DNA of 63,929 nucleotides, the filler included, from Hausera hauseri (Eukaryota): assembly GCA_046269625.1 (NCBI GenBank). It is 13 parts of 13 records of this genome, joined end to end, with 100 filler letters (N's around TTAATTAATTAA, not from the genome) between each part and the next. Parts side by side here need not be neighbours in the genome. Positions count along the whole stretch, not along the records: positions 49,300 to 55,048 come from JBJURY010195637.1; 12 more parts are not named here. One strand, 5' to 3'. The notes under the pieces were generated by a model. That model had not been told where the DNA came from, made no database searches, and saw only the letters and a program-made list of their open reading frames with translations. Below are positions 6,995-63,370 of this stretch, in pieces (positions within the stretch are counted from its first letter, which is position 1; each line of letters opens with the position of its first letter). A program made the position numbers and the translations under genes.

Positions 6995-7060
6995 AAGATT
7001 GAAATAACTTATCTAAGTGTTGTAACGGAAAACCTCGTGATACAAGAAACTTCAAACAAT

Positions 7061-7401: not shown

Positions 7402-9075
7402 AAAAAGTAGTGAGAAAATGGAGGTTCTGCCGCACCCCCGAGGGTGTGCGAATCGATATTGCACATGTGCCAATCGATAGTGCACCCGGAGCATTATCAA
7501 TCCATAGAGTGCTAGGCAACGGTGCCGCAAGGCACCGTTGCTAGGAACACTTTTGCACTTTTGACAAATCGATCGCTGCATAGTGCAATATTGATTGAAT
7601 CGACCGGAACAAAGTGCTAATCGATACGGCACATCGAGATGCATCGATTGGTGTACAGTGCAGGTGTGCAAAACATGTGCAAGTGTACAAAAATCAATAA
7701 TATCGGATTTCCGGTAAATCTAAAATCGATGATTAGCACTCAGGACCAGGTAAAATTGGTATTACACACGACGGGCTAAGTAAATGTGCAAATAGAATTT
7801 AAATCGGTTGATTGGTTTTCGAATAATTCTCAAGTGAGGCAAAACTGCCACAGGCCTTTCCTCTATAAATTTTAAATCAATAACATCAATATGGCACATG
7901 TAGTGCCGGGTGCAGTACTTGATATAGTATCGTTCAGTGCACAACTCGAGTGTGGTGTGCACTTTTCACTTTTCACACTTTGGTCATTGTGCAGCGCATT
8001 TGTGATGGAAATGATCGGGGTCAAGTGCAAGTGGATAAAGCACATCAAAATGCACTTTGATATATCTCGTGCAGTGCAAAAAGATGTGTGCGAAATATCG
8101 AATTTCCAATATTTCCAATATGGATGATTAGGACATGTGTCCGGGTGCAATCGAAAAGAAACACGGTGTAGTATATGAATGTGCAGTTATAATTTAAATT
8201 TATCTATTAGTTATTGATTAATATCAAACCAAATTGCAAATTGGTAATATATTCAACATGTTTTTAGTGCTAAGGAAGCAAAATTCGATATAACATTGAG
8301 CGGGGACAGATAGGAAATCGGCTATGATGAGTTCGAATGTCGAGTCGAAAGTTCGAAATTCGAAGATTTTCGAGCTTGAATATCGATGTTCGAATTATTC
8401 AAAAAATCTAACAGCGCGAGTCGATTCCCCGTATTCGAAAACGCCAAGCGCACAAAATTTATAATGTGACAATGTATTAGGAAATGCTGTATAATAAACC
8501 ATGTGTAACCACGATTGATTATAGCTTTGAAGCAACTTTGAGTGCAGTGACAGCATCTAATCTGAGCACAGATGTACAATGAGATGTTATGTCTCATTCT
8601 AATCTTCCAATGATCACGAGTTTGTACAAGCCTAAAAGGCTTCTAAGGTCAACAAGGTCCTATTCCACTCTACAAGCAATTACATCTTGTAAATGTCAGC
8701 ACGCACAGAGGGCCGAGAAAAATCAAGAAGGTTGCATGGCCTGCCACTCGTATTCCCAATGCCCACACAAAGCATGTTCAGATCAGATCTGTTTATTTTA
8801 TGCCCTCTGCACTTAAAAATAAATGTTAGAATTATTTAAAGATGCATAAATAGTACGACAAATGTTATGATTTTAAATCTGTTATCTGAAATAATTTGTA
8901 TACTTAGAATTACAAAATAGATTTAGAAGCTGAAATTAAACGGCTCACAAATGAAATATGCAGTGGGAAAATAGANNNNNNNNNNNNNNNNNNNNNNNNN
9001 NNNNNNNNNNNNNNNNNNNTTAATTAATTAANNNNNNNNNNNNNNNNNNNNNNNNNNNNNNNNNNNNNNNNNNNN

Positions 9076-11675: not shown

Positions 11676-12324
11676 ATGGCTGGGTTTGATCAAGGAGGAG
11701 TCTATTATTCACAACCAATAAGTGCTGAAAACGATTCAGAAAGTTCTCCACGTTCTATTCTAACTAAGTCAAAGTTTAATAAATTTATTAGAACTTTCAA
11801 ATATGGCTCATTTGACTATGTTTATTTAGATGTATTGAAACGCAATACAAACAAAAAATTACTCGATTCTCATAGATTTGGATGATTTGTGTAAATTTGG
11901 TGATAGGTTGTACAACCGTCTAGTATCTAAACCCGTTGCATATTTGCTTTTTCTGGAGGAAGTCGTCAATGCTATTGTCGATAAAGTAACGAAACCAAGA
12001 TTAGACGACACCAAAATACCGAGTATTCAAATACTTTTGAAATGGAACGCAAAACCCGACAGTTTACGAAATCTTGAATCTAAAAATGTAGCCCGATTAG
12101 TAAAGAGTTCAGGAATCTACATTGCATCATCGGATATTCAATCTAAAGCTGTTACACCAACATTGCAATGCCGTGGTTGTCGACAATATTTACCTAATAT
12201 TAACGTTAAAAGTGGTCTGAACGGTTATGTATTACCACGCAAGTGCACTGCTGCAACTGCTAATGTGAGAGTTGGTGTTCATTCTGCAATAAATCCGTGT
12301 CCGGTGGATCCGTATTTTATGTAA
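11676..12324 (+). pseudogene. MCM5: MCM5 N-terminal fragment with a frameshift near an A-run (~11860)
   Basis: MAGFDQGGVYYS...FNKFIRTF...DLDDLCKF...VTKPR...IQILLK...LRNLES..VARLVK..GI...LQCRGCR...GLNGYVLPRKC...CPVDPYF matches the MCM5 N-domain and Zn finger. No downstream AAA+ exons are recognisable in the contig. Confidence 0.9.
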
Positions 12325-13845: not shown

Positions 13846-14260
13846 GCTTGGCTTATGCAATTTTGTTGAGGCATTCTTATCAATAGATCGGTAATTATAT
13901 AGGCTTGGGCTCCAGGTAGATTGTAATAAAATATTTGAAACTTGTATCGGCAGGTTTGTCCGAAATCCAAATCGCAACATTTTGTATGAATTCCGTACGG
14001 AAAATCGCATGTTCTTATTATGAATCTAGTTACAAATATTATTTGAAATTTTACATGGTTCTGAATAGGTTCCCTCGCTTCGAACCATGCACACGGTTTG
14101 CTCTCATCCATATCTTATACTCTAAGTGATTGCAAATTTTGGATATCCTTTCCTCTTGCCGTATACTGTAATTTTTCGGTTTGAGTTATCGATTTCACAT
14201 TCGGTACATACGAAGCGATTAATGATAAGGCGAGGACTATTTGCACATACGTTACCGGTC
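13846..14260 (-). pseudogene. Putative envelope-like glycoprotein N-terminus, in frame with integrase
   Basis: After RYNLRS comes a hydrophobic signal-like stretch VTYVQIVLALSLIASYVPNVKS, then a Cys-containing region (KPCAW, TCDF, KCCDLDFGQTCR) in the same frame past one TAA at 14115-14117. Confidence 0.5.
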
Positions 14261-17200
14261 TAGCCGTTATGATCGATGTTTTCCTTTCTCTGTTTGTATG
14301 CTCATATTTTGCTCTGCAAGAACGTAAATTGTAGCGTTTACTTGGTCTTATCTCGGTTTTAACTACTCTCTGAATCGATGTGACCTCTTCCTTGCCATTT
14401 TTATTTATATAAACTGTGGTCGGTGTAATTTTAGTAACTTCATACGGCCCTCTACCGGTTCTGGTAAGTTTAATAGATGTACCTTTCTTGGCCACTGAAT
14501 AGTGTACGTAAACCCAACTTCCTGGTTCTAGGTAGTGTGGTTTAGCCTTCTTGTAGTATTGTTTCATAAATTGTTCCTGGTAATCTTTATATAATACCTT
14601 GGCTATTTCCCAACACTTGTATAATCTCAATTGTAATACTTCTACAAAGGTCTGCTCCAAATTTTCCGGTTTTGTTCTGTAGGGAATCCATCCTAAATCT
14701 GTAGGCAGTACAGCTTCTCTGCCGTACATTATAAAAACGGAATGAATCCTGTCACAGGATGTGGGGTAGTGTTAATGGCGAATTGTGTACCTTCTAAGAA
14801 CTTGTCCCAGTCTTGCTGGTCCTTTGCGACAACTGTTGATAAGATTCGTGTAACTGTCACGTTCATCCGTTCAACCATTCCATTGCATTGGGGGTGATAA
14901 GCCGTGGTAGTTAGATGTTCAATTTCGAAAATTTTGGTAATTTTGTCCAACAATTTGCTTGTAAAGTTTCTCCCTCGGTCTGCCAAATTTGTTTTGGCGA
15001 TCCGTATCTGCAATAATCTTCCGGACTACTACTTCTGCCAGAGTCTCGGCCTTTTGGTAAATTAACGCTATTAGTTCAACAAAATAAGTTAATCGATTTA
15101 CACAAGTCAAAATATACTTCTTGTTTTTGTGGGTCGTAGGTAATGGTACTACGATATCCATGGACATTTCCTGCATTTGTCTATCCGGCACGCTGATGGG
15201 TGTAAGTTTGGCGATGTAGTTTTTCACTTTTCTTTGTTTGGTTGCGCATACTTCGCAAGCGTTCACCCAATTCCTCACATCGATGTAAACGGTCGGCCAA
15301 TAATATTTATTTAAGATTCTTTCCAAGGTCTTTTTCCTCGACATGTATCGGGCTAAGTACGAATCATGCTCGGCCATCAGTACCTCTGTACGCAATCCCT
15401 TTAGTATGACTACCAATTTTCGTCCTTTCCGTTTGTAGTACAACACACTTTCATGGTTCAAGTCTCCCGTGAAGTGGTATTTGTGGTTGTATCTTCGTAG
15501 GTGTTTTTGTAACTGTTGACCCTTTAGTGTTTTGCTGGTATCAACGAACTCAATAACTTGTTGTATAACTTTGTCTTTTCTTTGTTGGACTGAAATCTTT
15601 AATGTCTTATCTAAAATAAGGGTCCGTTGCCTCTCCACTAATTCTTCGAAGTGGGTTTTCTTAATTACCTTAGCCGCGTTAATTTTTGTCTTAAGTCTAG
15701 AGTGCATTGACATCGACATTTTTATTTTCAGGTTTGTATTGGAATTCGATATTATACCGTGAGATCTCCTCGATCCTTCTGTTAAGTGTACAGGTTAGAT
15801 TATTTGCCCTACCTTTTAAGGTAGTAACTGCCTTATGATCGGTAACGATCACAATCCTTTGTCCATTAACGTACACGTTCAAATGTCGTAATGCTTCCTT
15901 CACCGCTAGCGTTTCTAACTCCGTAACGGAATAGTTCTTATCTGCTTTCTTCAAGGAGCGTCCTCCATATGCAATCGGGTGTTCCAACTTTTCGTCTTCT
16001 CGTTTTTGGGCCTGTTCATATCCGATGCCTTCCCTAATGGCGTCCGTTTTTATTATGAACGGTAGGTTGAAGTCGGGATATCTTAAAACGGGTTCACCAG
16101 TTAGAATCTTTTTCATTTCATCGACGGCTTTCTGTTCGACATCGGTCCATTTCCATTTGATGCCTTTTTCAGTAAACGATACAAAGATGCATTTATCTTC
16201 GCGTTTTCTGGTACATAGGTAGCATAGTACCCATATAGCCCTAGCCAGTGTCTTAATTCCTTCAGATTCTGAGGTCCCATATAGTCCGATATCTTACTTA
16301 ATAGTGATTTATCCGATTTCGACCCCCCTTCTCCAACTATATGTCCAATGTACGACACGGCATTTTGAGCCCATTTGCACTTCTTTGGATTCAGTTTTAG
16401 TCCAGCTTGCTCCAGTCTCATGAGTGTACCTTCAATATCTTTTAAATGATTCGATTCTGTTTTCTGCGTAATCATGACGTCGTCCAAATAGGCAAATGCG
16501 TGCTCCAGTCCCATTAGCATCTTGTTTATCATGCGAGTAAAAATGACCGGTCCGGTAGTTATCCCAAATGGCATAACATTAAATTCGTATATACCACGTG
16601 TGTCTTAAATGCCGTTTTATAATAATCTTCCTTCTCTATCTCTACTTGCCAATATCCGGATTGTAAATCGTGCATGGTGAACCATTTAGCTCCCGAAAGA
16701 CTATCCAAGGCTTCCTTTACTGGTGGTAATGAGAAGGTGTCTTTCATCATAATTGTGTTTAACGCTTGGTAGTCGATACAAAATCGGTGCTTATCGGTAC
16801 CTTTTTTCTTAAACATAAGTATAAGCGAATACCAAGATTTATAGCTTGATCTTATTATGTCGGCCTTTAACAATTGTTAAACTTGCTTAGTTATTTCTGG
16901 CCTTAACGAGTGTGGAGGGGGTACCATTTCGGCATCTTTTGGTCCTCTAAATCTATTTCATCGTTGGACCCCGGCTTTTTCTTAAGTAGGATAGTGAGTC
17001 TTAAGGTTTTGGCACGGCCAATATCTTCATCTTTCGCGATAATCGAGTTATAGCGACAAAGTAATTCGTAAAATCGACAATATGATTCCGGTGAGAATTT
17101 AGTCTTGACGTGGGGTAAAAATTCGGCATTCTTATACTGTTTCTGTTTGATGGTAATTGATGAAACTCTATACGTGTGTCCCCAAGTGGTATTGGCATAC

Positions 17201-23879: not shown

Positions 23880-24182
23880 TAGTGAAAAAAAAATAAAATA
23901 TGGGTGGTGGAGTCTTTCGAGGATGGCGAAAAGAAAAAAAGATAACAATTGTTTAGAGCAACAAGATCTTCATCAGACACATCAAACGCAGAAGACATAA
24001 CACACACTCACGCTACAACAACATCATGACTTTACGCTGGCGATGTAGTTTTAGTGTGTGTTGTCTGTTATGCTTTCTGTGTTTGATGTGTCTGATGAAG
24101 ACCTTTTTGGTCTAAACAGTCGTTGCTTCTTTTCTTTTCGCCAACCTCGTAAGACTCCACCACCCATGTTTTTTTTCTCACT
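23880..24182. repeat. ~140-bp inverted repeat pair, each arm with a hammerhead-like core
   Basis: Arm 23880-24025 is approximately the reverse complement of arm 24040-24182. Each contains CTGATGA-A-stem/loop-TAAAC. Confidence 0.8.
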
Positions 24183-36389: not shown

Positions 36390-36910
36390 TCATAATTGAG
36401 TACTACTACTCCCAAAGAGAATGATTGTGACATCATAATATTTGTCATGATTTGTTCGCTCTTTGGTACACAAAACAACAGTAATAAAATAATACATATT
36501 TCGCAAAAGTGATTGTAATGTTAGCCACAATAAGAAGTAATGTCCACATAGTATAGCCATTGGATGTTGATAATGAACTCGATTATATTCTGAACGGTAT
36601 GATGATGATTGTCGTTCAATTTGAGAAACTAATGATGACGGATAGTAAAATCCGAGCGGATCGAATTTTCAGACGACGTTGGTCGGATGGTGGACGTACA
36701 CAGCAATCCAATGTTCGCATGGCAACGATGAAGTGTGTGTATTGACAATAAAGCCGCCAGTTTGTCGTGAATCATGCGGCACAAAGTCCAGTGGAAACAC
36801 GCCACGAAATTTCACGCCCAAGAGCAGTTTTCCTTAGTGACTGAGCTCGGTGGAGCTAAATTTGAAAAATGTGATTTAAGTATAATAGTAATAGCAATAA
36901 ATAACTTTAT
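36390..36910 (-). pseudogene. Polinton adenain-like cysteine protease (PRO) with a predicted 50-nt intron at 36856-36905
   Basis: FRGVFPLDFVP...FIVNTHTSSLPCEHWIAVYV...FDPLG...YQHPMAILCGHY carries the His/Asp/Gln/Cys catalytic residues. Start is mutated to ATA; two internal stops. Confidence 0.9.
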
Positions 36911-36938: not shown

Positions 36939-38154
36939 TTATACAATGACGGTTCCGTTTTTCGTTATTTCAACATCCGCATCAAATACACCGTAAATGT
37001 ATATCACGGTAGATTGCTCCAACGCTTTAACAAAGTCAACCTCCAGTCGTAGGTTTTCCTGCTGAGGTAGTTGAGTCTGTTCAACGTCATAATCCGGAGC
37101 CAGGACAAAAGTGAAGAATGGGTAGGTGGACTTAACCAAATCCATCGATATGCCATTGTTGATGTTTTTGTTCAGCAAACCCATGTTGCGCCCAATAGAT
37201 TGCATATGTGCAAACAATCATTAAACTCAAAGTCTTGTTTGTACATCTCAACGAAATCCGCATTCCGACCCAAACTTATGTAATTCACATTGCTATGGGT
37301 AAACGTTTCCGAATCGGTGGTATAACTGCCCGTTTGTTGAACAGTCGTTTACAATGTAACGAGCACAAATTTTGGCAATCGGATGTCGCCAAACAGTACA
37401 TCTTTATTAAACATAGTTGAAACTTTGGGTATGGTGTAAAAGACGAGTTCTGTGCGTTATATCGGGTAACATGCATTTTGCGTTTCCAAGCCCAATTGGT
37501 GTCCCATGAGCACAGATGGTTCTACCTTTACACGAGGTACGTATAATCGTGCCTCGGTAATTTTCAGTATGGGGTTAAGATTTGCAACTGCAGTTTTCAA
37601 ACAAGACTCGCTGCGTTTGAGCCGAATCATGGCCTTAACACCGGGCAATAGGTATGTCGGCTGACCGAAAGTCAAAGTACAGCGGTCCACACATTTTAAG
37701 TGCTTTTGATTCTGCCACTCGTCTGATGGTTTGCTGCATTGGTGTCAAATCGGATGGTTTTCGTCAAATGAGTCGTTTTCGTGTCAGTACTATAATTCAG
37801 GGCCGTTTCAATGAGTGCTTTGATACTGTATAAACTGGTATTGCCTTTGATTTTGACGCTGTTTAGAGTCAGTGAAGCCTCCTGGAACAGTGAGAGGAAA
37901 AGGTAATTGGTTGGTGTGACAGTGTCTGTTGGAGCGAGAACCGTTGATGCATCCTTTTTAACAATGACTTTTACATGGAGTAGCGTATTGTTCAAATCCA
38001 GGTATTTATTGTCCGATGTTATAATGTTGAATTGAATGTCTGTTATCATCCGTTGAAACCGAATCAACGGGTAGATTTCTTCAAATGCCTCATTGTCAAT
38101 AACGTGTGGCGCGCCTTTGTCAAATATACACAATTCAGATTTTGCAGATGCCAT
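36939..38154 (-). pseudogene. Polinton major capsid protein (PY, double jelly roll), frameshifted
   Basis: KSELCIF...EEIYPL...IQFNI...YLDLNNTLLHVKV...PTNYLFLSLF...IETALNYS; QPTYLLPGV..MIRLKRS...ARLYVPRVKVEP...YPI; FFTFVLAPD...NLRLEVDF...YGVFD. Confidence 0.92.
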
Positions 38155-38498: not shown

Positions 38499-38531
38499 GT
38501 TGTTGTTCTAGGATTCGACGGAAATGAAACG

Positions 38532-39357
38532 TTAGACTGGTTGTGGTACCGTACGGAAATTCAATAAGGTAGATCGTGTAACATCGAATATTCACTTGAA
38601 CATTGTTTATAGATGTAGATGCCACAGGTAGGTGACATTGTCGCTAGCAGTATACTTGCTGCTTTCCGGATAAATTGCACGGAGTAACGGTACACGTACT
38701 CCATCGACCAAAATCGGTTCGGTGACGTTCACGTAAATGTACATTTGACTTAGACTAGTTTTCAGTTTGGGTTTAAGTGTTACATGTGCTGCCGCCGCCG
38801 ACGATGCCTCAAACCGCTGTTTTTCAAAACCCTATACCATGGCCAAAGCTTTGTCCAATGAAATGTCGACAATATCCTTAGCCGTTCAAATTTAATATAA
38901 CAATTTGCATCTGACTCGAAAACTGTAAAAATCTTGTACTTTTGATTTGAAGAAGTGTTGACAGAGATGTGCTACAGATTCGTAATAGACATGGTCTCCA
39001 ATCGATGCGTATGACGTTGGCACCCTTTCTGCTGTATAGGTAAATTTCACCGTTGTCTGGTAATATACGGGACTCAATCTTGGACCAACTACATATTCAC
39101 TTTTATTATGTTTACATTTGTACTCTGTATTTTTGAATCCAAATTTCTGCGCCATCTCAGAGGACTCAAAGGTAAATTCAAAATCTGCCATAAAATGTAA
39201 GTTTTCTAAAATAAAAACACCGATTTTGCCGTGTGAACCGTAATTTGCTTCGGTCGTGCAAATGGCCGATTCTCCAACTATTATTTTATTGTTAGTAAGT
39301 GTCAGAGGACAAGAATGTGTTTTGGTTTCAGTAACAGTCTTGTTGTACGTTATTTTC
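38532..39357 (-). pseudogene. Polinton minor capsid/penton (PX), 3' part
   Basis: QMYIYVNVTEPILVDGVRVPLLRAI and terminal LNFR motifs, directly upstream of core and MCP. Confidence 0.75.
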
Positions 39358-39874
39358 NNNNNNNNNNNNNNNNNNNNNNNNNNNNNNNNNNNNNNNNNNN
39401 NTTAATTAATTAANNNNNNNNNNNNNNNNNNNNNNNNNNNNNNNNNNNNNNNNNNNNTTTCTGTTTCCAGTATAATCTGTTGTTTTCGGTTGACTTCTTG
39501 TTCATAATTTGTTGCCTATATAGAAATATTAATAGTTATTGACGAATTTCAATTCATCATAGCATGTTTCTCTATTAGATTACATTTCCTGAAAATCACC
39601 CAACACGTACTACGTACCATGTTTCAATCATACACTGTGTTTCGAAAAGAATTGCTTACAAAGAGCACAAACGGTAGGTCGAATATTAGATTGGTACTTT
39701 TGTATCGGTCCAACATCAAAAAAGCGCTATAAATATTAACTGGAGAAAAGGAACAAAAAATTATTCCATGGTTCAAAATTCTTAAACAGAATGGGAGATA
39801 CTTAAACAAGTGCGAAACTAAGAAGCTAATGCAGTTCTAGATCATTAAAAAACGTATTAAAAATGTACGAATAA

Positions 39875-42562
39875 TTATACGTCACGAGTCTTTTGTAGAT
39901 TATTAATTACGATTGTATTCTTTACGCACATTATATGGAAATTTACCAGAATTTTATATTTTTCCATCTCGTTAAATATTTCTCGGTTCTGAACAGCCAT
40001 TTCTTGAGCATGCTGGGTTTCTTTCGATAAAGCAATGTTCAGTTTTTTCATTTTGAGAATAGCAGTATCATATTGTTCTTTAAATTTCTTCAATTCATCC
40101 AACTGGCACTGGACATTATCCAGAACGAAGATCTGTTTTTCAAGCTTTTCTTTTTGCGCCCGGGTAGAGTCAAATTCAGTTAGAGATTTCTGCCAATCCG
40201 TATGGAGTGATTTGTATTTATTCGTCAATGTTTGGGTCTCTGAGTCTTTATCGAGAACTGCTCTTTCCAATCGAACCTTTTTTTCTCTAATACTTTCAAT
40301 TTCCTTATGCTGATTCTCATTCAATATCCGCAAACGATCAATTGATTTAATTTGCTGTTGTTCGTTGTCATGACAAGTAATCAACTCCACTAAATGAGCA
40401 TTATTCAACATCTGTTCTCGTTCGTCAAATATTCTAACTTTTTACTCCAATTCTTTTAATTGATTCTCCAGTTTCTCTCGTTCGCCATCCGAACATTTCA
40501 GTGTTATATAGTCGTTGGATTTGCTCATTTAAACATTCAATTGATGTCAGGTACTTTTTAATTTCAACATCAGTCGATTCTTTCAGTTCGATCAAACACT
40601 TTTCCGTTTCACTTTTGCTCGATTTGGAATCATTCAATTTGGTTTAAAGACTGTTGTTTGAACATTTTAAATTGGCCACATTTTTGTTGATTTTCTAATT
40701 CGATTCGAAGTCTTACTTTCGGAGAATGAATCACATAACTGTTGTTGGCACGTATTCATATCCATCTCAATTCGGATAAATTTATCACCGAGTTGCTGCA
40801 GTCGCTTTGCCATATTTTTCTCTTCGGTATTTTTCCGTTTAAGTTGTGCACCAAGTTCTGATATTCTCTTCTCCTTCGTTTCCAGCGTAATTTGACAAGA
40901 ATCCAGTTTACTCAACAAATTCTCGCAATCTTTTTCTTTACTTTTCAACTTAGTTTCACAATCGGATAGTTTCTGATTATGAGTTTTTTTATCTTTCACC
41001 AATTTCATCTCGTTTTTCACTTGCCCGTCATCTAATAGTGCACTGGAATATTGATTACGTAAATTTTCGTTTTCATCAGACGGATAGTTCATTTGTTTAC
41101 GTAAGATCCCACTATCATCTTTTCCCAACAAATTCTTGTTTATTCTATCAATAATGTTATCTGTTTCAGCAATTTCATGTTCAAACGAATCTCGACGTTC
41201 AATTTCAATTTCTACTTTACCAATAGCTTCCGAAATTTGTTGAATTTTACGTGTATAACACGATGCATTTGATTCCAATTCGGATAATTTCAAATGAATA
41301 AATCCGACTTTCTCGTCGTATTTTATTGCGGCATGTGAAATCAATTCTCTGAAATCGGCATTCTCATCGCGAATTTCAAATCGTTCTCGAATGAACTCAA
41401 CAAATTCCGATGTAACAAACTGTTGCACTGAATAATCATTCCACCGCAATCATTTCGTTCATAATCTAACAAAGCCGAACACAACTTTTCGATTTCGATT
41501 AATTTCTCTTCGACATCTTTATCACGAATTTGTCGATAGTCTTCAACACCCCATTCGGCTTCTCGACATTCTTCAACTAAATACGTTTCTTTCTCTTCGT
41601 GTCTCTGTCGCCAATCCATTAAATCACTCTGTAATTGATCTCGCTCTTTTTCCAATGCCCGAGAAATATTTCGACTGTCTTCAATCATCTGTTCAAGTCG
41701 CTTAATTTGGTCATCTTTCACCATTAATAAATCGTTCGTTTTTTTTAAATTCGAATGTAAACTTACGTTTTTGTCTTTCTGTTTTTCAACGATACTTTCT
41801 AAATTTTTTACCAATTCCACCCTGAAGAACATTTTTCGACTCAATTTGTAATAACAATAAATCGGCTAATTCGTTTGAAAATGAAGAGATTTTTGACAAT
41901 CGATTAAAAATCTACAGAAACATTGACAGAATAATTACGTTTCATTAATTTTTGACACTTCAAACAGATGATAAGGTAGAGAGAATAAGCATATTTTCGT
42001 CTCGTCAATTAGAAAATAATCCGGCAACTTATTCTCATCAGAATTGACTTTGGCCAATTTATTCTTTAATCCTTCAATTTCAATTGTCAGACGATTGTCT
42101 TTCTCTTTTCTTACGGACAGAATTTGAAATCACATTTAAATCCATAGTTCCATCAATAGACAAACTCAAATCAACATAAGAATCATTCGTATCAATAGAA
42201 ACAATGCCAGATACTAATGATTCCAATTCATTTATTCGTTTGGATAAATTGTCCACAGTAACATTTTTGCTATTATTTGACTCCTGTAAACAACCAATAT
42301 TTTCCGATAATTCAATTTGTCTATCATAGGCGATTTTACAATTATCAACCTTTTCATGGAGCATATGTAGCTGTTTTTCATAGTACGGACTACATTCCTT
42401 TTTAACAATAGGTCGTTCTGAGGGTGGATCGAGCATGTACATCGTTTTGAAATATCCTATTATGTTCAATAATGTTTTGAGTGAATGTAAAATAACAGCG
42501 GTTGATCGATTCAGAAATTCATTAAACGCATCGTAAAATCTACCATAATTGAACAAGAGAAA
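39875..42562 (-). pseudogene. Long coiled-coil protein coding region, broken by frameshifts and stops
   Basis: Consecutive E/K/L/Q-rich heptad ORFs: 42080.., 41341-41844, 40667-41449, 40434-40637, 39875-40411. Confidence 0.7.
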
Positions 42563-44739
42563 ATTGGAAGCAATGCAGCTGCATTGACCCGCATCGTCAG
42601 GCGTAATATCCATTATTGTTAAATAATAGTTTGGAAAATCATTTATTATTTTCATTCGTTTTCTTGAGTCTTTTTGACTAAGTGTTTCCCCATTCCGTGT
42701 CCATAGGATTTTTGGTTCAGGTTCAGTGACAAGTCTACAATTAAATCGAATACTGTCGCCTGAGCATAAGTTAGCAGGTTTCGGCTTTTTGATGAACATC
42801 GGTGCAATGCAGCAGGATTCTTCCAATTGGTCTAATGAAACTTGGCTGGATGGAATAGCACTCGCTTGTTTTATATGAAGTCTACCGTCACTCTTTACGT
42901 AGCCCATATCGTTCGCCACTTTAATTGAATACTTTCCAACATGTTTTATTGAAACAGACGGAATTGTTAGCGCGAAGAAAGTCTCATGTGACCACTGAAT
43001 AAATTCCGAATCTTCTATCGGTATTTCTTGATCTTCAAAGTACCAAACCGATTTGGTAACACCACACTTTTCAATTTCATTTTCAAATTTACGAGTCATC
43101 TTCCTTTTCTATAGTTATATCTCGTAATGGATTGACCATTCTTGGTGATATTAAACACTGAAATATATCTTTCGATTGGACCTTAACAATTCTTTCTCTG
43201 ACATGAACATCAATATCGACAGTCTCATTATCTACTTGAATAGAATATGTACCACAATCCTTTAGTTGAATATTTGACAATAACAAATTATAACATTTCG
43301 GTTGCGTTACTAATGTCAAATTCGATTGATCTTCATTAATAGGCACACCATCTCGTAGCCATATTGGTTTACCAAGGGAATTAGTAGGAATTTCTGTTGA
43401 CACAGATAATTGTAATTCTTCGCCTTCAACAAGATCTACTTCTTCCACAGTACATGATAATAAGTTCCATTTCTTTCCATCTTCCTTCTCGTCTTCAATA
43501 AATGATACCATAACATCAATCGAATTCTTTTCACCATTTTCATTCACTACATTGCAGGTATACATACCTTTATGTAAGTTAGGAATAATATTTTCGATAT
43601 ATAAATCGGTAAAAGAACTCTCTGGATTATACGGACCTTCACATAATTTTCCATTATGTAACCATTCGATCGTGGGATTTTTGGGATTAATAATCTCTAC
43701 GGTAATTATCAAAGGTTTAGCCGACGATGCTTTGATATTTGTCGAAGAAACAATCAGCTTCAACACGTCATCATGGTCTTTTTCTGAAGACTGTTCAGAA
43801 ACATTCGATTCAACTGTCAGAACAAACTCCACAACACGAGATGATTTGTCGCTAACGTACATACAACATTTATACACTGGGCTATCATTGAGTTCCGCAG
43901 TATCCTTTTGAAAAATAAATGTACCGTCAACAAAACTTGACTTAAATTTAAAATTTGTGTCTACCAGTTTGTTGTCAATTGACCATAAGGCATGAGTTTC
44001 CTGTGGTTTTGCAGAAACGTTTAAACACAGTTTTTGCCCTTCTTTAACCGTTACGACAACTGTCTCAATTGATGCCGTTTCCATAGCTTTTGATTGAATA
44101 TCTAAGGTAGTTTTTGCATAGAGGACGTTTCCATTTTTACATTCAATTTTGCACTCATATATCCCTTTGCGTTTCGCACTGCAGTTGAAAATTTTAAGTT
44201 CAGCAATACGCCCATTTTCTACAATATCTGTAATAATTTCACGAGACATTTCAAGTATTTCAGAATTATACCACCAGGTAATGCTGAAGTGAGTGAGAGG
44301 ACACTGGACAAAAGCTCTTAAAATAACCGATTCACCTTCTTTAACGGAGTAGAGCTCTTTTTCGAACTTGATACTACCTTTTGCCGAATCATTGATTCCA
44401 ACTACTTTAATCTGAATTCCAACTTCCACAGATAATTCCTTATTAACAAAACCCTTGCACAGGTAAGAACCCTCATCTTGTTTGACTATTTTATCTATCA
44501 ATAACATTGAAATGTTGTTGTTAAATTTTTCAATCATTCTAATATCTCGAATTAGCTTTTCATCATCGGCGGTTTTCATCGTCCACTTAATATCCTTTTC
44601 CAAAAATCCCTCAACTTCCACACATAACGTCACGCAATCGCCTTCTGACGCAACTATGTTACTTTCTAAAGGATATAAATTTCTTTTAATTTTTTTGACG
44701 TTCAAAAAACATTTTCCCAAAACGGCGGCTAATCCAGAT
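42563..44739 (-). pseudogene. Titin/obscurin-like tandem I-set immunoglobulin domains (~7), frameshift near 43095
   Basis: Repeated V.EG..V.L.C / W..NG / D.G.Y.C patterns: DEGSYLC, KGIYEC, KGMYTC, DCGTYSI, VGKYSIKVAN, APMFIKKP...PEPKILWTRNG...DAGQCSCIASN. Confidence 0.85.
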
Positions 44740-45049
44740 NNNNNNNNNNNNNNNNNNNNNNNNNNNNNNNNNNNNNNNNNNNNTTAATTAATTAANNNNN
44801 NNNNNNNNNNNNNNNNNNNNNNNNNNNNNNNNNNNNNNNGTTTCAATTCATCCCTCCACACGCTCAAGCTAACTTCCACTCTGCTGTAAGAAAGATGGTG
44901 GGATGGAGGTTTTGATCGCTAAAGAAGGATGGGAGTGGGAGCTCTCCGTCTCTCCTGCTGCCTTTTTTCACATCCCAACCGCACTCTCAGGTGTGTAAAC
45001 TTTACCACGTTTGGCTCCATGCAACAGGAACCACAAGGGGCTACAGTGC

Positions 45050-49299: not shown

Positions 49300-49532
49300 A
49301 TAAAAATCGTAACAACGGCATAACGATGGATGATTTCAAAAAGAAATACCCGTTTTTCACCTTTCTTCGGGCTATAGATTTTGATATTGAACAGACTCAG
49401 CTTCCAAAAACCGGTAATCTCAAATTGGACGGCCGGTTCCACAAAGAGTTGGCTGAATCCATCAGCATGTATGTATACGGTATATTTGATTCAACAGTGA
49501 AAATAACCAACATTAGTCAAATTATTGTATAA
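49300..49532 (+). pseudogene. Polinton major capsid protein C-terminus (second, divergent family)
   Basis: YPFFTFLRAIDFDIEQTQLPKTGNLKLDGRF...YVYGIFDSTVKIT aligns with the 36939-37217 product YPFFTFVLAPDYDVEQTQLPQQENLRLEVDF...YIYGVFDADVEIT. Confidence 0.9.
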
Positions 49533-49558
49533 ACAGGAATATATATAATCAGCTTTAT

Positions 49559-49762
49559 ATGAAGTAATCACATAATCTATCATGTTAAATTATTATTAGT
49601 TGCAGTACATTTCAGATTGAACGGCAACTAACTCATTTACTCGGACTTGCGAATTTTAAAGGTGTTTATGCATTGGAACATCATCCGGATTACTTGACGC
49701 AAGGAGCATATGTTGTATACACACATACATCAAATTTACCAGGAGAGCATTAGATTGCAATA
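49559..49762 (+). pseudogene. Polinton adenain protease N-terminal part with a predicted 42-nt intron at 49564-49605
   Basis: Spliced: MN|TFQIERQL...NFKGVYALEHHP...AYVVYTHTSNLPGEH*IAI; the C-terminal half is deleted. Confidence 0.85.
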
Positions 49763-50179
49763 TGTTTCATCGATTTTGAGGCTCTCTATCATAATGATGG
49801 ACAATATATTGTGAAAGTGATGTGTATTATGAATGTTGACAATATGTTTTATCCGCTGCATTATGTTTTCAAACCGATATTGACGTGGAATAATTTGGTA
49901 AAAAGGCACAAAACATAAATTTGTATCTAATGAGTCATCGGGTTAAACTGGCTTGGGAAGATGGATGTATTGGATGATGTATCTTATTTTATTAATATGA
50001 AAAAAACACTGTTTTATGTGAAAGACCACACCAATGGACAGAAAATCAACACACTTAAATCGTATTTTCCATCATTACGAATTGCGAACTATTTTGCACA
50101 TGAGTTGAAGACAATACCAGATAATATTTTATGTCCATATACCGATCATGGATCAAAATGTGCCTATAAAAATGTTTAG
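49763..50179 (+). pseudogene. Polinton-associated DEDD-exonuclease-like gene remnant
   Basis: FIDFEAL...YIVK.MCI...HYVFKP...W..L; LAWEDG; FYVK...QKINTL; CPYTDHGSKCAYKNV. Confidence 0.6.
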
Positions 50180-51559
50180 TGTTGTCTCAGTACTATTTGC
50201 CCTGTAAATAAGTTTTGGGGTTTATACATATCTTTGACTAGTTTGACTTTTTTTAAACATGTATATTTTGGAATGTAATGTTTAAATTAAAGAACTTGAA
50301 CGCTTTAATGAAAGTGTTGTTTACTTTTACAACGCTGTATAAATATCTTGTCTTTCCTGTCTACGTTTATAAAATTTTTAATTCATTTACATGTGCACAG
50401 ATTCTTCTACTTTCTCCATATTAATTAAAATACTATAAACGTCTAAATTATGATTTAACTCCTTTAAAACTCTCTTAATATATAATGATAGATGGTTAAA
50501 GAAAGAGAGAACACCATTTACATAAATTTGCAATATTTTTGGAGGAACAACATCCAAAATGCAAACCTTAGTCATTCAAAATGCTACTAATAATCTCAAT
50601 TTATTTGACCAGCATTTTCTGTTGTTATCAGTAATAGTTTATTATGGCAATTTTTATGTATCGCTACATTATTAACCTGTATAATTTGAATTTACAATAG
50701 GAATCGGTGTGTGCATTTCCTAATAATCGAAGGCCACAAATCGACGAAAATATCAAGTGATTCGCAAATATAGGTACTATTTGCAAATGTGTCATCATCA
50801 TCATTACATTTATTTTAAAATAAAGATTTGAAGCACGTTTTAGTCGTTTCAAATACGATGTAGTGTTAAAATATCTTAAATTTCATTGCCCTATAACTTT
50901 TGGCCATGCACATAAGTGAACACAAACTATATTCGATAGTATTTTACTTATGTCGGATTTTCAGTTTGTCGTTCATGTTATGTCTAATTCGTCTAATTAT
51001 CAGTTACATCACTAACATTTCTTCATTCTATATAAATATTAACATTACACATGAATGATAACATGCTATGACTCAAATATTAAACATATTTTCAGTATGA
51101 AAAATTTTGCTTCGTTATTATTTTTATTACCATCAATTAATTTATTAAAACTTATAACGTTAAATGAAAACAACTAGAAACATTGAAATTGAATAGAGCC
51201 ACTGTCCAAATAATCATTTTCACAAAAATAACAGAAGTTGATGTGACTGACCCAGTTATTTCCTTCACTGGTACTATTGCTATCAAATCGTACAATTAAT
51301 GATAGCAAACACAACTCGATGTGAGAGAAAACGAATAAAACCAATATCATATATAAAAATAATTTACACTGTTTCAAATTATTAAAAATTCAAAACCTCT
51401 AATGGCAAGTAGAGATGTAAGCATTTTTTGTATTATTATTATTTTATTATTATTACCTTTTTACATTCATTGAATGAAACCACTCACTTATATTTCAAAG
51501 AAACTCGCTGGAGAACTAATTGTTATACATAAAGTGTTTATATACAAAACACACCTAAT

Positions 51560-51795
51560 GAATATGGATAGGTCCTAATTCATGATGGAAAATGTTCAGA
51601 ATGTGTGTTCCATTATTTTCCATACATTCATGGCATCGTTTAATGAAATTTTGGAAGCATCTTTGAAGGGTGTCTATCAATTTTAAAATTTTCATTGGTA
51701 ATTTTAGTTTTCAGTTCTGCTATTGTTAAGGGTGATCTTTCGAAATAAACCTTATCCTTTAATGCACCTCACAAAAAGTAGTCACAAACGGACAA
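51560..51795 (-). pseudogene. Tc1/mariner transposase C-terminal fragment
   Basis: DYFL*GALKDKVYF...TIAELKTKI; shares DNA sequence with 52175-52250. Confidence 0.7.
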
Positions 51796-52046
51796 ATCGG
51801 TTCTACAAATGACGTTTAATTAGAGATACTGTTGAATTCTGAGTTCAATTTTATAAAGTGTATTCGGGATTTAGTGGAACATACATTCATTATTTTTATA
51901 TTACAGTACTATTGTGAGAAGTATTAGAGTTCTCTGAGATAGGTATGAAGATGATGAGCTAGGTGAGTGGGTATTTATCTTTTATGTATTTGTTTTGACA
52001 TTTAATGAAAATATTAATTTAGTTATATGCTATGGTTGTGTTTGTA

Positions 52047-52875
52047 CAGGTTGGCGGTGAAATAAAGTGATTTTTCGATCCTGATGTTGTAACTATCAAT
52101 TTTATTAGTAAAATTTTACTTTAGTAGTAAAAAACATACTTTATTAATAAGAACAAACAATATATAAACTTGAATGTGGATAGATCCTAATTCATGATGG
52201 AAAATGTGTTCAATTATTTTCCATACATTCATGGCATCGATTAATGAAATTTAATTTTATAAGCATTAAATTCCTCTTTGTGTAGGATTTTCTGAATTTA
52301 GAGGCGATTAATATGTCATTTTCGGGCTGCTTTGCGTGTACTCTGTGTTGGGTTGGCTGTGAATTCCAGATAATAGCGCGTACGTTACCAAGGGACGATT
52401 TTCGTCCACACTTTATTTTCAGATTATCAACTCTACCAGTTTCTTCATATTTTGCAATATTGTTCTTGATAACATTAACAGCAGGTGGTCCTTTTCTGAT
52501 TTGGTTACGAAACTTCTCTCGAAGATCAGAAGTGCTATAATTACCTTGACGGTTTATTTTGCATGATTTATAATTTAACATCAGAAACATTTTTCATCTT
52601 TATTAAGGAGAATCATACTTCCCTAATGATGGCAAATAAAATTACTTGAATAATGATCTGAAAAGAGCAATAATTTTTTGGTTGATGCAAAATGAACGAC
52701 TGTGTTTATTGACTCTTATTTAAGTCATAATAAATAATTAGACGGAGTTCAAAAAATATATGAGAAAAAGAGTACATACATTCGGTATGTTTTTGCACGT
52801 CTATGTAATTTTGAAAAATTTTTAGATTTAAACAATTTCAAAATCGAAAAATCTGTTTATTTCGTCGCCACTATG
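52047..52875 (-). mobile_element. Internally deleted Tc1/mariner element, 829 bp
   Basis: TA-flanked imperfect TIRs CAGGTTGGCGGTGAAATAAAGTGATTTTTCGAT / ATCGAAAAATCTGTTTATTTCGTCGCCACTATG; HTH ORF (IAKYEETGRV...CGRK) at 52210-52590. Confidence 0.8.
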
Positions 52876-52889
52876 TATAACGTTTGTCC

Positions 52890-53620
52890 TTTTGTTACAG
52901 AAATACGTTGTGTCAAAAACAAAAAACTTTCACTACGGGAACCAAAACGGATAGTTTGTGTACAATCTCCAGACATTTTCGAAATTTACATGGGTTTTAG
53001 TGGACTGTTTAGTAGAACTGAAATAAGCAATACTCTATGACCCAGCAAGACTAAAAGACAGCTGTTGATGTTATTTTAAAGCAATAGATCCTTAAATATG
53101 CATCTCCTTAAAGAATATATGCATATCACGATAATGTTTTGGAATACAAGCTCTTTCGAGGTTTCACAGACAACCAAAAATTGAAATAAAATAAGCTAGC
53201 CTCAATCATCACCATAGTAGATTTTAATTATTCAGAGACGATATAGAACGATTAGAGATTGCGTTTCGATTTCAACTAGTGATAAGACTCACGAAAATGG
53301 CTAGGTGCATTACCTTTAGTTGAATGTATGGTGAACAATATGATACAAAGAGCCCTCAGAGTTACACCATCCGAAATAGTATTTGGAATGCGTTTATGCA
53401 ACCAGTACAAAGTTTTCTGAAATTTTGATTTTGACAGTAAAGTGTTAATAAAAAGTTAACCAAAATAATCTCGATATCCGGTCCGAAGGACATTATACAG
53501 TGGTAAAATATTGCATGACAGATTGAAGAGAAATTAGAGGAAGTGATTGATACATAACATAAAATGTTTCGCCATTTTAAAGAGGAGGATGTGAAGATAT
53601 TCAGTGTCGAACATAATTTC
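52890..53620 (+). pseudogene. Degraded Gypsy integrase end with PPT and LTR start
   Basis: QRALRVTPSEIVFGMR, EGHYTVVK, then AAAGAGGAGGA followed by TGT at 53590. Confidence 0.55.
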
Positions 53621-54001
53621 CCTTACATATTAATTGGATTGTGTAATTTGCAAAATAAGTATTTACGTTTTATTGATGATATTTTATCCATGGTAAACAA
53701 AACCAAAAAATTGTCAACTTTAAGTAGTTTGTAAACAACAAACCAATTTGCATGTTGACATTAAAGACACTAAACATTGAACTTATAATTTGATTTATTA
53801 TCTGTAATGATGACTTTGTAAATTGCTTTCCTGTTACAACTGATTGACGAATAATTTGATTTACATATTCTATGTTAGCGCGGTAATTGAAATTTGATTA
53901 TTTATATTTCACATTTCGATAAAACTACTATGCTGATCGAAACTGCTTCCACTTGAGTCAATATTCTAATTTTGATTTAATGTCTTCTTTTATTATTCCT
54001 T

Positions 54002-54154
54002 CACGTTTCTATGGCATGATTCGATGAACGTTAGTTGAAAAGAGTAATGAAAGAAGGATTTGTTTATGTTTAGTCTTCAAAACTAAATTGAAACAAATCC
54101 TTCTTTCATTACTCTTTTCAACTAACGTTTATTCAATCATGCCATAGAAACGTG
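54002..54154. repeat. Foldback palindrome (64-bp arms)
   Basis: 54002-54065 is a near-perfect reverse complement of 54091-54154; a partial copy lies at ~34175-34250. Confidence 0.9.
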
Positions 54155-55870
54155 GATGTTTGTAGGTTACAAAAAGTCATAACCCTAATTTATGTATTTA
54201 TGTATGTGTGCATCTCATGACAATATGCTATTGAGAATTCCACGAAATGTATTATCATGAAGAATGAGAAGAGAATATATTAAACATCAATGTATGTAAA
54301 TCTATGCAGAACACTGTCCGAAACACATTCAATTGTGACAGCGTCAATTCGGTTTCGCTAGGAAACATTTGTCAAATTATTAATCATTATAAAATTCCAT
54401 ACTTGCATTCCAAATTTCTTAAAATAGTTCTCTTTTGTCAAAAAGTGAAAATGTAGCACAAAAATAAAGCATTTTCAAAACTATTTAAAGTACAAAATAT
54501 TTCATTATTGAGATAATACACACATATGACAAGTTCAATAATTATTCCATTAGACAAGTATTTATAATAAAATGACTCACCGTCAAAACAAATTCGAAAT
54601 TTTTGTCTAATTTCGTTTACTTTTCCAGTCATCATTTTAAGTAGTATTTCACTCTGAGACAAATCACAAAAATACTGGACATCGTGTCTTTATACTGATT
54701 AGAGACATTTCAAATCATACTTCGCTTTTTTATTATGGTTAAAACAGAAATAAATATCTTAATTAATCAGTAGTTGACAAATCAATTCGTTTATCTACTG
54801 TTTAATCATAATTTTCCAACCGAAATTTTTTTAATTAAGCATTTAAAATTTCCAAAATGTTCGAGTATCTGAATGGCCTATATATGTTGCATTAAATTTG
54901 AGAAAATATATCTAATAAAATCAATAAAGGTACTAAATGTACATTTTTTGTTCATACAACATAGGTCCTCAACTTCAAGCAGCGAGGCTGTGTGAAATGT
55001 CTGTCTAGGCATAATACACAAAACTACTTGATATAATAAAAACTGAATNNNNNNNNNNNNNNNNNNNNNNNNNNNNNNNNNNNNNNNNNNNNTTAATTAA
55101 TTAANNNNNNNNNNNNNNNNNNNNNNNNNNNNNNNNNNNNNNNNNNNNCCCCGGGACGGAAGGAGAACCCTGCGAATCCCCGTGAAGGTGGGCCCCATGC
55201 TCGGGGACCGGGATGCATCAAAGCCTTCACAGCCAAGCCTCAAGCCAACAAGGTGAATGCGTCCGTCTGCACAGTCAAGAAAAACGACCATGCGCCTGCT
55301 GCCAAGAGACCACCAACTCGCAGTTACAGAGGCATCAACCAACCAACCAACCAAGGGTGCACTCAAAACGGCTGTGCAACGCATGGGATCGGACCCCATT
55401 TGGATAAGCCTCGTGACTTGCCTAGTACCCGTGCTTCGGGAAGGAAACCGCAACATGCGAGGTGGAACTGTCGAAATGCCAAACATAACAGCCTTAGTTT
55501 GTGGTATATAGATTCCCTCGTGCATAGATTCCATTTAATTCAATTTTCTTCCCAGGTAAGCTGTTTGAAGGGAAGGCCAAAGGCAGGAATAAATGGGGAA
55601 GACAACCCATGCCATATGAAGGAGTTACAGGGATAAGTAACTAGTACAAGAAAATATAGGCATCAGATACTGTAGCTATCAATAATAAAACCAACAAGGC
55701 TAGAATGTTGGATTTATAATTTTCAAAAAAACTTAACAGTTTACAAAACTGAAATTATTTATTAAAAAAAAACTAATTGTGTGCACCACATGACAAAAAG
55801 CTGCAGAGCAAAATGATGCATTTAACAAGTGAACTTCGATTTGGGTTTGTCATTTGCCTGCAGTGTCATT

Positions 55871-58602: not shown

Positions 58603-58744
58603 GTCGTATTCACCACTGCAGGTAATTCGTAGATCAACTGTAACACTCCGATTGGCCCAATCAGATTTGATCATGGTCAAATCTGATTGGATCAATCAGA
58701 GTGTTACAGCTAATTCTCACGTTACCTGCGATGGTGAATACGGC
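58603..58744. mobile_element. Palindromic ~142-bp MITE (Harbinger-like termini)
   Basis: GTCGTATTCACCA...TGGTGAATACGGC; self-complementary about a CATG centre at ~58671. Confidence 0.7.
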
Positions 58745-59589: not shown

Positions 59590-62500
59590 AATTTTTACTA
59601 CGGCAACAAATACGATATTGCCAACTGCGTGGCACCTATTACTAATAGCACAGCTGCCAACACCATATTTAACACAAACATTTTGCATCAAATACCACCT
59701 AGTCACAACAACTTTTCTATAACTTATACCTCAACTGCATCCAGTCACGATACATCGACACCATCGGATAATTTTTCATCCTTGTCTTCTGATCTAGAAC
59801 AATACATTTCGTCTTCCTGCACGCGTCTGTTGCAGAAGGATAAATCATTTGCACCTCCTCAATCCACCTTTCGTCACATAGTAACTGCACATAAAAGACC
59901 AATACGGCAAAAGGTTCGCCCGATGTCGCCTCGACGCAGACAAGCAGTGGGGGCTGAGTTTCTCGACCTTGAAATATCAGGCATAATCAGAAAATCCAAT
60001 TCCCCCCGGTCTTCACCATTGCATGTAGTTCCAAAAAATGGCACCTTTCGCCCATGCGGTAATTACCGACAAATAACACCATGACAACAATGGATGCCTA
60101 CTCTTTACCATTAATCAACGATATTCTACACAGACTTCATGCTTTGACCATCTTTTCCTGCATTGATCTACACAAAGCATACTACCAAATTCCGGTGGCC
60201 ACAGAAAACATTCCAAAAACGGCTGTCATTACACCTTTTGGCCTTTTTGAATACCTCTTCATGCCTTTTAAACTCCGTAGCGCGTCCCAGATCTTCTAAA
60301 GGCATATCGATACAGTCCTATCAGGCTTAAACTTCGCCTATCCCTACATCGATGATATCTTAATCGCATCATCTTCGTCCAAACAACACTCTGAACACTT
60401 ACGTTTAATCATCCAGCGCTTACACCAAAACAATTTGCAAATTAACTTCTCCAAATGCTCCTTTTTCAACATAAGGCCAACTTCCTAGGACATGTTATTA
60501 GCTCCTCCGGACATTCACCTCAGCCAAACCACATCACACAGCTAAAATCATACAACTACCATGTACATAAACAGAGATGCGTTCTTTCCTCGGAACCTTG
60601 CACTTTATTCATAATGTCGTTCCGCACTGTTCTACTCTAACCGCCCCATTTGCATCACTAAGCTCTGGCAAGAAGAAACAGCCTATTTAGTGGACCGGCA
60701 ATTTAGTCAATGTTTTCGATCGTCTCAAAAACAATTTGAAAACTGTGGAAATACTGGCCTATCCAGACTCCCATGCAGAACTTTTCTTAACTACCGACGC
60801 ATCTACAACAGCTGCAAGTGCTGTCCTCCATCAAGTTAAAAATGGATCCAATGAGCCATTGGAATCCATTTCTCGAAAATTCACAGCACAAGAGCAAAGA
60901 TATTTTACCATTAATGGAGAATTGTTTGCAATGGTCCTTGCCGTCAAACACTTCAAACGTCTGCTAACTGCACGAACTTTCACAACACAAACAGACCACA
61001 AGCCCTTGCTCCAAATTCTCACCATGAAATCGCCTTCTCCGTGTCAGGAGAGGCAAATATCGCATTTGTCAACGTTTAATTTTGTAACTAAATATCTAAA
61101 TGGATTCGACAATTTAGTAGTTGACTTTTTGTTCCGATCGGTCAGCTCGATTAACTTTACACCAATTTTTCCTCAATCCAAATTTCAGCAAAACCAGCTA
61201 TCTCCTGACATCCTTAAATCATTTAAGTCGTGCTAAACCATCGACGGTGTGGTCTTCGACACCTCCAAACCTAATAATCTCAAATCATTCTTTCTGAGTC
61301 GCTTCAAAAGGAAGCCTTCTACAGCGTACATTCGTTTCATCACCGTGGTGCCAAGTCCACTGTTCGACTCTTGCAACGCCAAGTAGTATGACCGTCGATG
61401 CGCTCTGACGTGCCCTCATGGGTTAGGCAGTGTGTGGCATGCCAAAAATACAAAGTTACTAAGCATCTAAAGCCACCACTATTTTATTTTCCTGCACGTC
61501 TCGTTTCGAATCTGTTCACATTGATCTTGTAGGCCCATTACCCTTAGACAACGGTCATTAGTTCATCCTTACAATGATGGACCGTTCCTCGCGATGGCCA
61601 GAGGCTGTCCCGCTTCGGAGCACCAACATAGAAACCATTGCAGATGTTTTCATCCGCACTTGGATCAGCAGGTTTGGATCACCTCGGCACATCATTTCGG
61701 ACTAAGGCCCACAGTTCGAATCCAACCTGTTTAAAGCTCCTGCTAATCGATTGGGAATTAACCACATTCACACACCCGTATATCATCCCCAGTCAAACGG
61801 CCTTCTTTAACGCTTTCATCGAATAATAAAAACGTCTCTTAAAATTCTTGCTGAGTCCAATCGCAATTGGACTACACTCCTTCCTTGCGTTCTGCTTGGC
61901 TGACGGAACACACCATTTACTTCTACAGGCTGTTCGTCTGCAGAAGCATTATTTGGCACTTCCATCAGATCATTATTCGAGCTAACTGAGCTGGACAATA
62001 CTCCTACAGACAAAACCATACAAGCGGCACACAGACACTTCGTTGAGATTAGCAAAGACTCATTTCGCAGATTGTTACACGCAAATAAACCCTACATACC
62101 CGACGATTTATATACTGACAAGTTTATTTGGTTAAAGAATCAGACGCCGTGTAGATTTCAACCACAGTATGTCGGCCCTTACAAAGTAATTCGCTTACAC
62201 TCCAATAACATCATTCTCAAAGACGAGAAAGAAGTAACCGTTCACATCAATAATGCTAAACCGGCCTTTTTTATTGACGACACGTCTCCCGTTGAAACTA
62301 CGTCGCCACCAACATCTCTGGGCAACGCGCAGCAATCCAACAACTCACCTTCCATCTCTGCTCAATGTCTTAAGCCACTCTCCCTTACGTCTTCTCCCAA
62401 AACTTCCACTTCAATTTCTTCTCACAATTCAGCCTCTTTCTCCCCATCCGATTCTGCACCTTTAATCCTTTCACCACCTCCTTCGTCTCCTCACAACAAC

Positions 62501-63370
62501 CTGCTTTATCCTTTTACAGTACTTCCTCCACAAAACACCATTTCGACTTTACCAATCTCTTCATCTACAACTTTCATCACTCTAACCTCTTGCACACCAC
62601 CCTCCAACTACTTTCCTTTGCCATTTTCTCGCTGTCTTTCGCCTTGTACCTCTTCGCCGTCTCCTCTTTCTCTCTGTCCCTCTGTTTCCACACCTTCCTC
62701 ATCCTCGGCGCTTTCTTCCTGCCTTTCTTATCACACATCATCTTTTCTCCTTTCGCTTCCACTTCGCAACTTCCTCCTCTCTTTACCTCTTTTCCTATTC
62801 CTTTTACTCTCTCTACTACAACTTCCCTTTTATCTTCCACTTCCACTCTCTCACATAATTCAATTCCAATTTCTACTCCAACTTCTTTTTCTCTTTCTTT
62901 ATCCTCCACTACACCTGTTATCATCCCTCCATCTTCTAATACTTTCTTGAGTGCCTTTAACCATCTGTCTTCAATAATCTCACTTCCTCTTTCACCTTCT
63001 TCTTCTATTCTTTTTGACTCGTCTTAGCATCACACAACAATAACAACAAAATCTGACTATTTTTCCCCAACCTCAAACTCTGAAAATAAACACACAGCAC
63101 AAAGACAAAACACGCAGAGTCGCATTCAGCAAGTATAGCAGGGAAAAATCACTGGAAGGAACCAAACGTCTTGTCCACACTAAGACCGACTGACACAGAC
63201 ACTTTTTCGTTTTACAATTTTTTCTCTTTTTTTTACCCTTCATAGTTTTCACTTTGCCACGGCGGGTGATGTGGTGCCTACAGCGGACGGCGCCCTCTAG
63301 CCAATTTGTTTGGACACGGCCGAGCGTCCGTTGCCGCCGCGTCGGGCCCATAATCGGGCCCAGATTTCCA
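59590..63370 (+). mobile_element. Ty3/Gypsy retrotransposon (RT, RNase H, integrase, long 3' region, 3' LTR); degenerate
   Basis: SSPLHVVPK...RPCGNYR; IDLHKAYYQIP...KTAVITPFGLFEYLFMPF; YIDDILI; LTTDAS; TDHKPL; VHIDLVGPLP; YVGPYKV; LTR-like segment at 63270-63370. Confidence 0.95.

Follow-up and report, generated by a model that had tools for sequence, protein, structure and literature searches.

Do Polinton (Maverick) elements always carry their core genes as uninterrupted reading frames, or can the protease that matures their virions depend on the host spliceosome? The question is raised by a protease gene (copy A) in the DNA analyzed here, a stretch of 63,929 nucleotides from Hausera hauseri (the window) that consists of short contigs joined by N spacers. 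Its host is an animal, as indicated by Ig I-set, Notch LNR and MCM frames. An intronless core is a common premise in this field. In passages of the relevant papers, intact vertebrate Mavericks are defined by intronless ORFs and their core genes are called intronless (PMC8097293), the core of a Caenorhabditis Maverick is intronless, introns being a sign of cargo (bioRxiv 10.1101/2022.07.12.499685), and a large protist survey justifies its prokaryotic gene caller on the grounds that endogenous viruses contain no introns (PMC10120064).

Comparison with related loci pointed to a genuine U2-type spliceosomal intron, which would have been gained once in the ancestor of one animal Polinton clade and inherited since; we give this reading a probability of about 0.8. 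The position of the intron follows from comparison; that it is spliced we infer.

The protease gene and its intron in the window

Inspection of copy A gave the arrangement ATG-AA/GT...AG/T at positions 49559-49606, as described in the initial annotation, with donor GTAATC at 49564, acceptor TTGCAG ending at 49605 and an intron GC content of 0.24 (Table 1). Without splicing, the frame stops after two codons, in agreement with the immediate stop reported earlier. An alternative in-frame AG at 49598-49599, six bases earlier, would make a 36-nt intron possible. The 42-nt acceptor was chosen because its register equals that of the closest relative, locus L015; it agrees with the length first reported.

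The contig that contains copy A, 49300-55048, starts part-way through the 3′ portion of a Polinton capsid gene; of the element it retains only this capsid end, the protease and the next gene. It is a dead relic, with a premature stop and an internal deletion near 49765 that fuses the first protease half to the next gene. With this stop and the 3′ half lost, the set of His, Asp and Cys motifs is not intact. Thirteen contigs of run X1 depart from the window sequence at 49765 and, by a reading of their letters, run on into the missing part of the protease. Run X1 contributed 984 contig pieces on the stretch 49300-50600 and run X2 contributed 97; over 49300-50200 they match at 80% or more, so the family is highly repeated in those runs. 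Two joints were listed among these pieces, neither of them across the intron, and they have no bearing on splicing; other contigs had deletions of 2 and 3 nt inside the intron. Copy B, on the opposite strand, is also decayed, and both copies are relics that probably inherited the intron.

Table 1. Coordinates of Polinton features at copies A and B (positions along the window)
Feature	Position	Strand	Remarks
Copy A, 3′ end of major capsid gene	49302..49532	+	tblastn with L024 capsid ORF, 51% over 76 aa, E 1e-19; stop 49530-49532
Copy A, exon 1	49559..49563	+	ATG 49559-49561 plus AA 49562-49563; layout common to 12 related loci
Copy A, intron	49564..49605	+	42 nt, phase 2, GT-AG; after codon 2
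Copy A, surviving 5′ half of protease exon 2	49606..49765	+	FxGV motif to just past catalytic His; tblastn 42% to L024 exon 2, E 3e-8
Copy A, premature in-frame stop	49751..49753	+	
Copy A, decayed next gene	49766..50191	+	L024 homolog matches from residue 5 at 49766, E 2e-16; L015 homolog 61%
Copy B, major capsid gene, frameshifted	36939..38154	-	E 3e-93 in four pieces
Copy B, exon 1 position	36906..36910	-	start codon gone
Copy B, intron	36856..36905	-	50 nt, GT-AG, same phase and register; donor degenerate
Copy B, protease exon 2	36390..36855	-	premature stops at 36836 and 36671; 46% to L024, E 1e-24

The label "major capsid" in copy A, where there was no Pfam match, and the capsid labels of L024 are our assumption from gene order and likeness; the gene behind the copy A protease is presumably DEDD-exonuclease-like, judging by a motif.

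Identification of the gene as a Polinton adenain was upheld by structural and motif evidence. The six top structure matches of a model of the homolog P0030 (pLDDT 87) were all adenovirus proteases (best E 4.9e-5), and the His, Asp and Gln..Cys motifs were kept in 11 of the 12 related loci with the intron, the remaining one (L032) being cut by its contig end. An intronless homolog, P0002, matched PF00770 (E 1.7e-4). P0030, P0038 and the window protease fragments had no Pfam match, and a PDB sequence search with copy B returned nothing significant. Copy A grouped with P0030 (SH-aLRT 90) in a quick protease tree of 152 rows, with 6 atypical rows left out, that was poorly resolved.

Host introns of 35 and 45 nt in the window had been cited as matching the protease intron in size, but they were not confirmed. 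A loose scan of the window gave candidates of 35, 45 and 46 nt, but Pfam scans of 30 and 134 window frames tied none of them to a recognizable gene; a strict scan gave one donor with two acceptors, in a retroelement region.

Conservation and history of the intron in related loci

A search with P0002 against 1.84 billion representatives yielded 150 proteins among the matches listed. The FxGV motif was present in 134 of these: 115 had a Met 14-28 residues upstream, 2 carried the signature of read-through into the intron and 17 started otherwise. We fetched 41 metagenome loci, with an alignment of 10 suspect proteins, and scored 34 after dropping 7 (2 ended just upstream of the motif, 4 had no motif match and 1 was misplaced). 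One fixed rule was applied to all 34, written after the loci had been viewed, so the counts below are a consistency check and not a blind test. Scans of viral contigs gave nothing close (0 loci, or 14 and 44 loci at 25-38% identity).

Twelve of the 34 loci had the arrangement ATG-NN/GT...AG, with an intron of 37-43 nt at the same phase-2 position after codon 2. The other 22 had an ordinary in-frame ATG, and a splice candidate was present in none of them. The alignment of relatives around the ATG thus placed GT and AG at a fixed register in intact elements as well as in copy B. The 12 loci represent 8 lineages with proteases 48-71% identical (about 10 lineages overall). All 12 distinct introns were GT-AG, with donor positions +1 to +6 (G12 T12 A10 A12 G8 T10) near GTRAGT. 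Intron lengths, copies A and B included, ranged from 37 to 50 nt and spanned all three frames, and removal of the intron restored the reading frame of intronless homologs. Position was conserved and the interior was free: interiors of 10 representatives were 59% identical versus 58% for shuffles, and the branch-point motif YTRAY occurred in 5 of 10 introns versus 5.8 expected, i.e., without enrichment.

Could insertions or decay have produced chance GT-AG ends? Copies A and B are decayed, and AT-rich DNA does yield chance GT-AG pairs. However, the background of the pattern was 0.9% (433 of 46,791 positions taken arbitrarily from 9 related loci; in the window, 989 of 127,438), the lengths span all frames, and the register was fixed in 12 of 34 loci and copy B and absent from the 22 loci with a normal ATG, which argues that the intron is not a product of chance. 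Downstream of it, exon 2 is, on the substitution rates, under purifying selection. dN was well below dS in most of 7 pairs (L018/L020, 0.022 versus 0.25; L016/L018, 0.21 versus 1.42), with one pair saturated and one, L022/L032, giving a weak signal (dN 0.028, dS 0.049, few changes). We consider a chance origin extremely improbable.

The predicted protein start also agrees with splicing. After removal of the intron, 17 residues precede the motif in 11 of the 12 loci, 15 in L015 and 18 in copy A, compared with 17 in the intronless loci L021 and L025. An in-frame ATG that would bypass the intron was absent from 10 of the 12 loci. The exceptions are L017, with an in-frame Met further downstream, and L023, whose intron contains an in-frame ATG; these two could therefore make an altered protease from unspliced RNA. 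The distance from capsid stop to protease ATG was -1 to +4 nt in 11 of the 12 loci, 42 nt in L015, 26 nt in copy A and 28 nt in copy B, and intronless relatives were as compact at this boundary.

Such spacing would also suit an AG that serves mainly as acceptor for an upstream leader, joined to a polycistronic late RNA either by alternative cis-splicing or by trans-splicing of a spliced leader, with ATG-NN-GT secondary. Trans-splicing occurs in flatworms, and the host may be a flatworm, since the best match of an MCM5-like frame was a tapeworm protein (45%, one of three hits). Nevertheless, a usable ATG is missing from exon 2 in 10 of the 12 loci, and in all 12 the ATG and donor are kept 37-43 nt upstream of the AG and restore an N-terminus as long as that of the intronless sister. 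Use of the AG chiefly for a leader is thus very unlikely, and an intron that separates the start codon from the protease body is the reading we follow below.

The intron also affects gene calling. P0038 matches L017 at 100% identity, yet its start is placed at a downstream Met, a direct case of a gene caller mis-starting the protease; P0001, P0020 and P0030 read through the intron. The initial annotation suggested that ORF callers would miss this gene; callers do mishandle it, but by mis-starting it rather than missing it. Filters that demand intronless ORFs would score this clade as broken or, as with P0038, mis-start its protease.

Which element carries the intron is best seen in L024, which is nearly complete at 14 kb and has its other core ORFs open. 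Its packaging ATPase matched Pox_A32 (E 5e-6), a 1304-aa ORF matched a window relic that itself matches PF03175 (protein-primed PolB), and a further ORF matched the rve integrases of the window (E 5e-12). ATPase, integrase, PolB, capsid genes and protease, i.e., the Polinton/Maverick core set, are thus present in one element. L024 also has, at 225-2866, an accessory ubiquitin-conjugating enzyme and a TATA-binding-protein-like gene (by Pfam; the latter also in L030). Two tandem, mutually similar minor-capsid-like ORFs occupy L024 positions 5610-7684; L019 likewise has two, and L017 and L026 have one. A window segment at 38512-38846 (-) belongs with these minor-capsid-like ORFs.

In capsid trees, all intron-bearing rows fell in one clade (support 100/100), in which copy A was placed beside L015 (98/93). 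The intronless L021 lay inside this clade, grouped with L017 (81/92), and Asp is residue 2 in both; intronless L025 was placed with L021 by its protease (92% identical). Intron-bearing rows formed a clade of their own in 0 of 200 bootstrap trees in one analysis and in 12% in another, and an AU test did not reject an intron-only clade (p = 0.355). The history we favor, which these trees suggest without showing it, is a single gain followed by exact loss, probably once, in L021/L025.

Candidate introns were read from the sequence in other genes as well. Five candidate GT-AG introns of 41-46 nt interrupt a Cys/His-rich leader upstream of the polymerase ORF in L018 (1687-2243), and four, also of 41-46 nt, the same leader in L020 (1580-1993); the matching leader is unbroken in L024. 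Further candidates are a 43-nt intron in the exonuclease-like gene behind the protease in L015 (3029-3071), which copy A and L024 lack at this site, and one of 46 nt in a dual-specificity phosphatase in L017 (873-918). These candidates suggest that the clade gains short introns in several genes; the protease intron was the most widely shared among the loci seen. A third Polinton relic in the window, at 4803-6804 (-), contains polymerase pieces and a similar Cys/His-rich leader.

The intron does not behave as an introner: its interiors are no more alike than shuffles, and it was absent among window repeat families of at least 40 nt. An old introner may still have been its source. Passages on dinoflagellate maverick-polinton-like elements describe intron-forming sequences inside Polinton-like proviruses (PMC11957031), indicating that introns in this virus group are not unheard of. 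However, those introners are repeated transposon families, mostly acquired after integration, whereas the protease intron occupies one inherited site and has interiors at shuffle level.

Probable splicing, possible control and known systems

This lineage appears to use host splicing for its protease. The host would transcribe the element in the nucleus, and the spliceosome would remove some 40 AT-rich bases, joining the start codon to the protease body. The product would begin with Met-Asn/Asp-Ser/Thr, as is usual, and 15-18 residues would precede its FxGV motif, whereas unspliced RNA would give a two-codon product. The intron is probably removed constitutively, in a step that is needed without acting as a dedicated switch. 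The intron may persist because only exact loss is tolerated, and a start-proximal intron perhaps aids expression. The initial claim that the lineage needs host splicing for its protease therefore holds in part: comparison supports the intron, and bypass is unavailable in 10 of 12 loci, but L017 and L023 could bypass it and L021/L025 do without it.

Gating of capsid maturation by this splicing step, also proposed initially, fared less well. In its fullest form, retention or removal of the intron would time or limit protease output, possibly on a transcript shared by capsid and protease, and would so gate particle maturation. The intron is the sole one at a fixed place across the clade, with the ATPase, integrase, capsid and minor-capsid ORFs open in L017, L024 and L026, and unspliced RNA would yield only two codons in 13 of 14 rows. 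An ATG -1 to +4 nt from the capsid stop leaves no intergenic promoter space and implies either a promoter inside the capsid gene or a shared RNA. In adenovirus, hexon and protease mRNAs arise from one unit by alternative splicing, as passages of PMC7851563 state. Against this, L021 and L025, in the same clade and with intact proteases, are intronless and have an N-terminus of the same length, which argues against the need for a gate. Donors are near consensus and interiors unconserved, compactness is equal in intronless relatives and introns occur in other genes too. The early stop needs no special explanation, since a GTRA donor placed in phase 2 creates a stop codon by its own sequence. A regulated switch is therefore distinctly unlikely, and a special gate on capsid maturation is not supported.

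A broader, tentative proposal, which we regard as rather unlikely, would make this intron at the start codon a conserved means of control. Capsid and protease would share an RNA, and its splicing by the host would decide when and where particles mature, or would label the RNA of the element as self and so shield it from silencing. A benefit of the latter kind would hold by analogy only: in human cells, introns act against HUSH repression (PMC8770142), and planarian Polintons are repressed by piRNAs and become de-repressed when smedwi-2 is knocked down (passages of PMC8532177). Were a control device present, it would offer an RNA-level readout for the cells in which animal Polintons make virions. 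Constitutive splicing of an inherited intron has implications of its own. Its inheritance while the proteases diverged to roughly 50-70% identity implies that a virion-maturation gene has long been expressed in the nucleus and has depended on the host spliceosome. In addition, the splice junction is a marker, one that DNA cannot mimic, that the morphogenesis module is really transcribed; it is therefore relevant to whether particles are formed by animal Polintons, an open question.

The adenovirus polymerase and pTP genes have a short first exon that bears the ATG. The adenovirus L3 unit (hexon and the L3-23K protease) has the same protease fold, neighboring capsid and protease genes and a spliced protease mRNA, but passages of PMC7851563 describe alternative 3′ splice sites and no intron that cuts the start codon off from the remainder of the protease, as the one found here does. 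Animal Polintons and Mavericks, including adintoviruses, share the core gene set, the capsid-then-protease order and the adenovirus-like protease (PMC8097293; bioRxiv 10.1101/2022.07.12.499685; PMC8502044); in passages of these papers, however, core ORFs are intronless and introns are confined to cargo, whereas in the present clade a start-proximal protease intron is widely shared and some members have further introns. We found no description of an intron in a Polinton protease in the literature searched; annotations of such exons may exist in Repbase or in supplements. Passages of bioRxiv 10.1101/2023.08.22.554363, PMC8502044, PMC12220804, PMC5718144, PMC6431247, PMC11296320, PMC8532177 and bioRxiv 10.64898/2026.07.28.741278 likewise do not describe it.

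Other features of the window

Several further features were observed outside the Polinton relics. The MCM5-like frame (best match, among 3 hits, the tapeworm protein at 45%) is a 5′ fragment at 11677-12321 (+), without introns and frameshifted. At 39600-44783 (-), long open frames rich in Ig I-set domains precede coiled-coil-like frames, and few introns are apparent. Related LTR-retrotransposon pol copies (75-89% identity) are present at 9077-11179 and 61043-63225, and a further RT/RNase H/integrase relic at 14115-16604. Long near-perfect palindromes or inverted repeats were detected at 54002-54154, 23891-24176 and 58605-58742.
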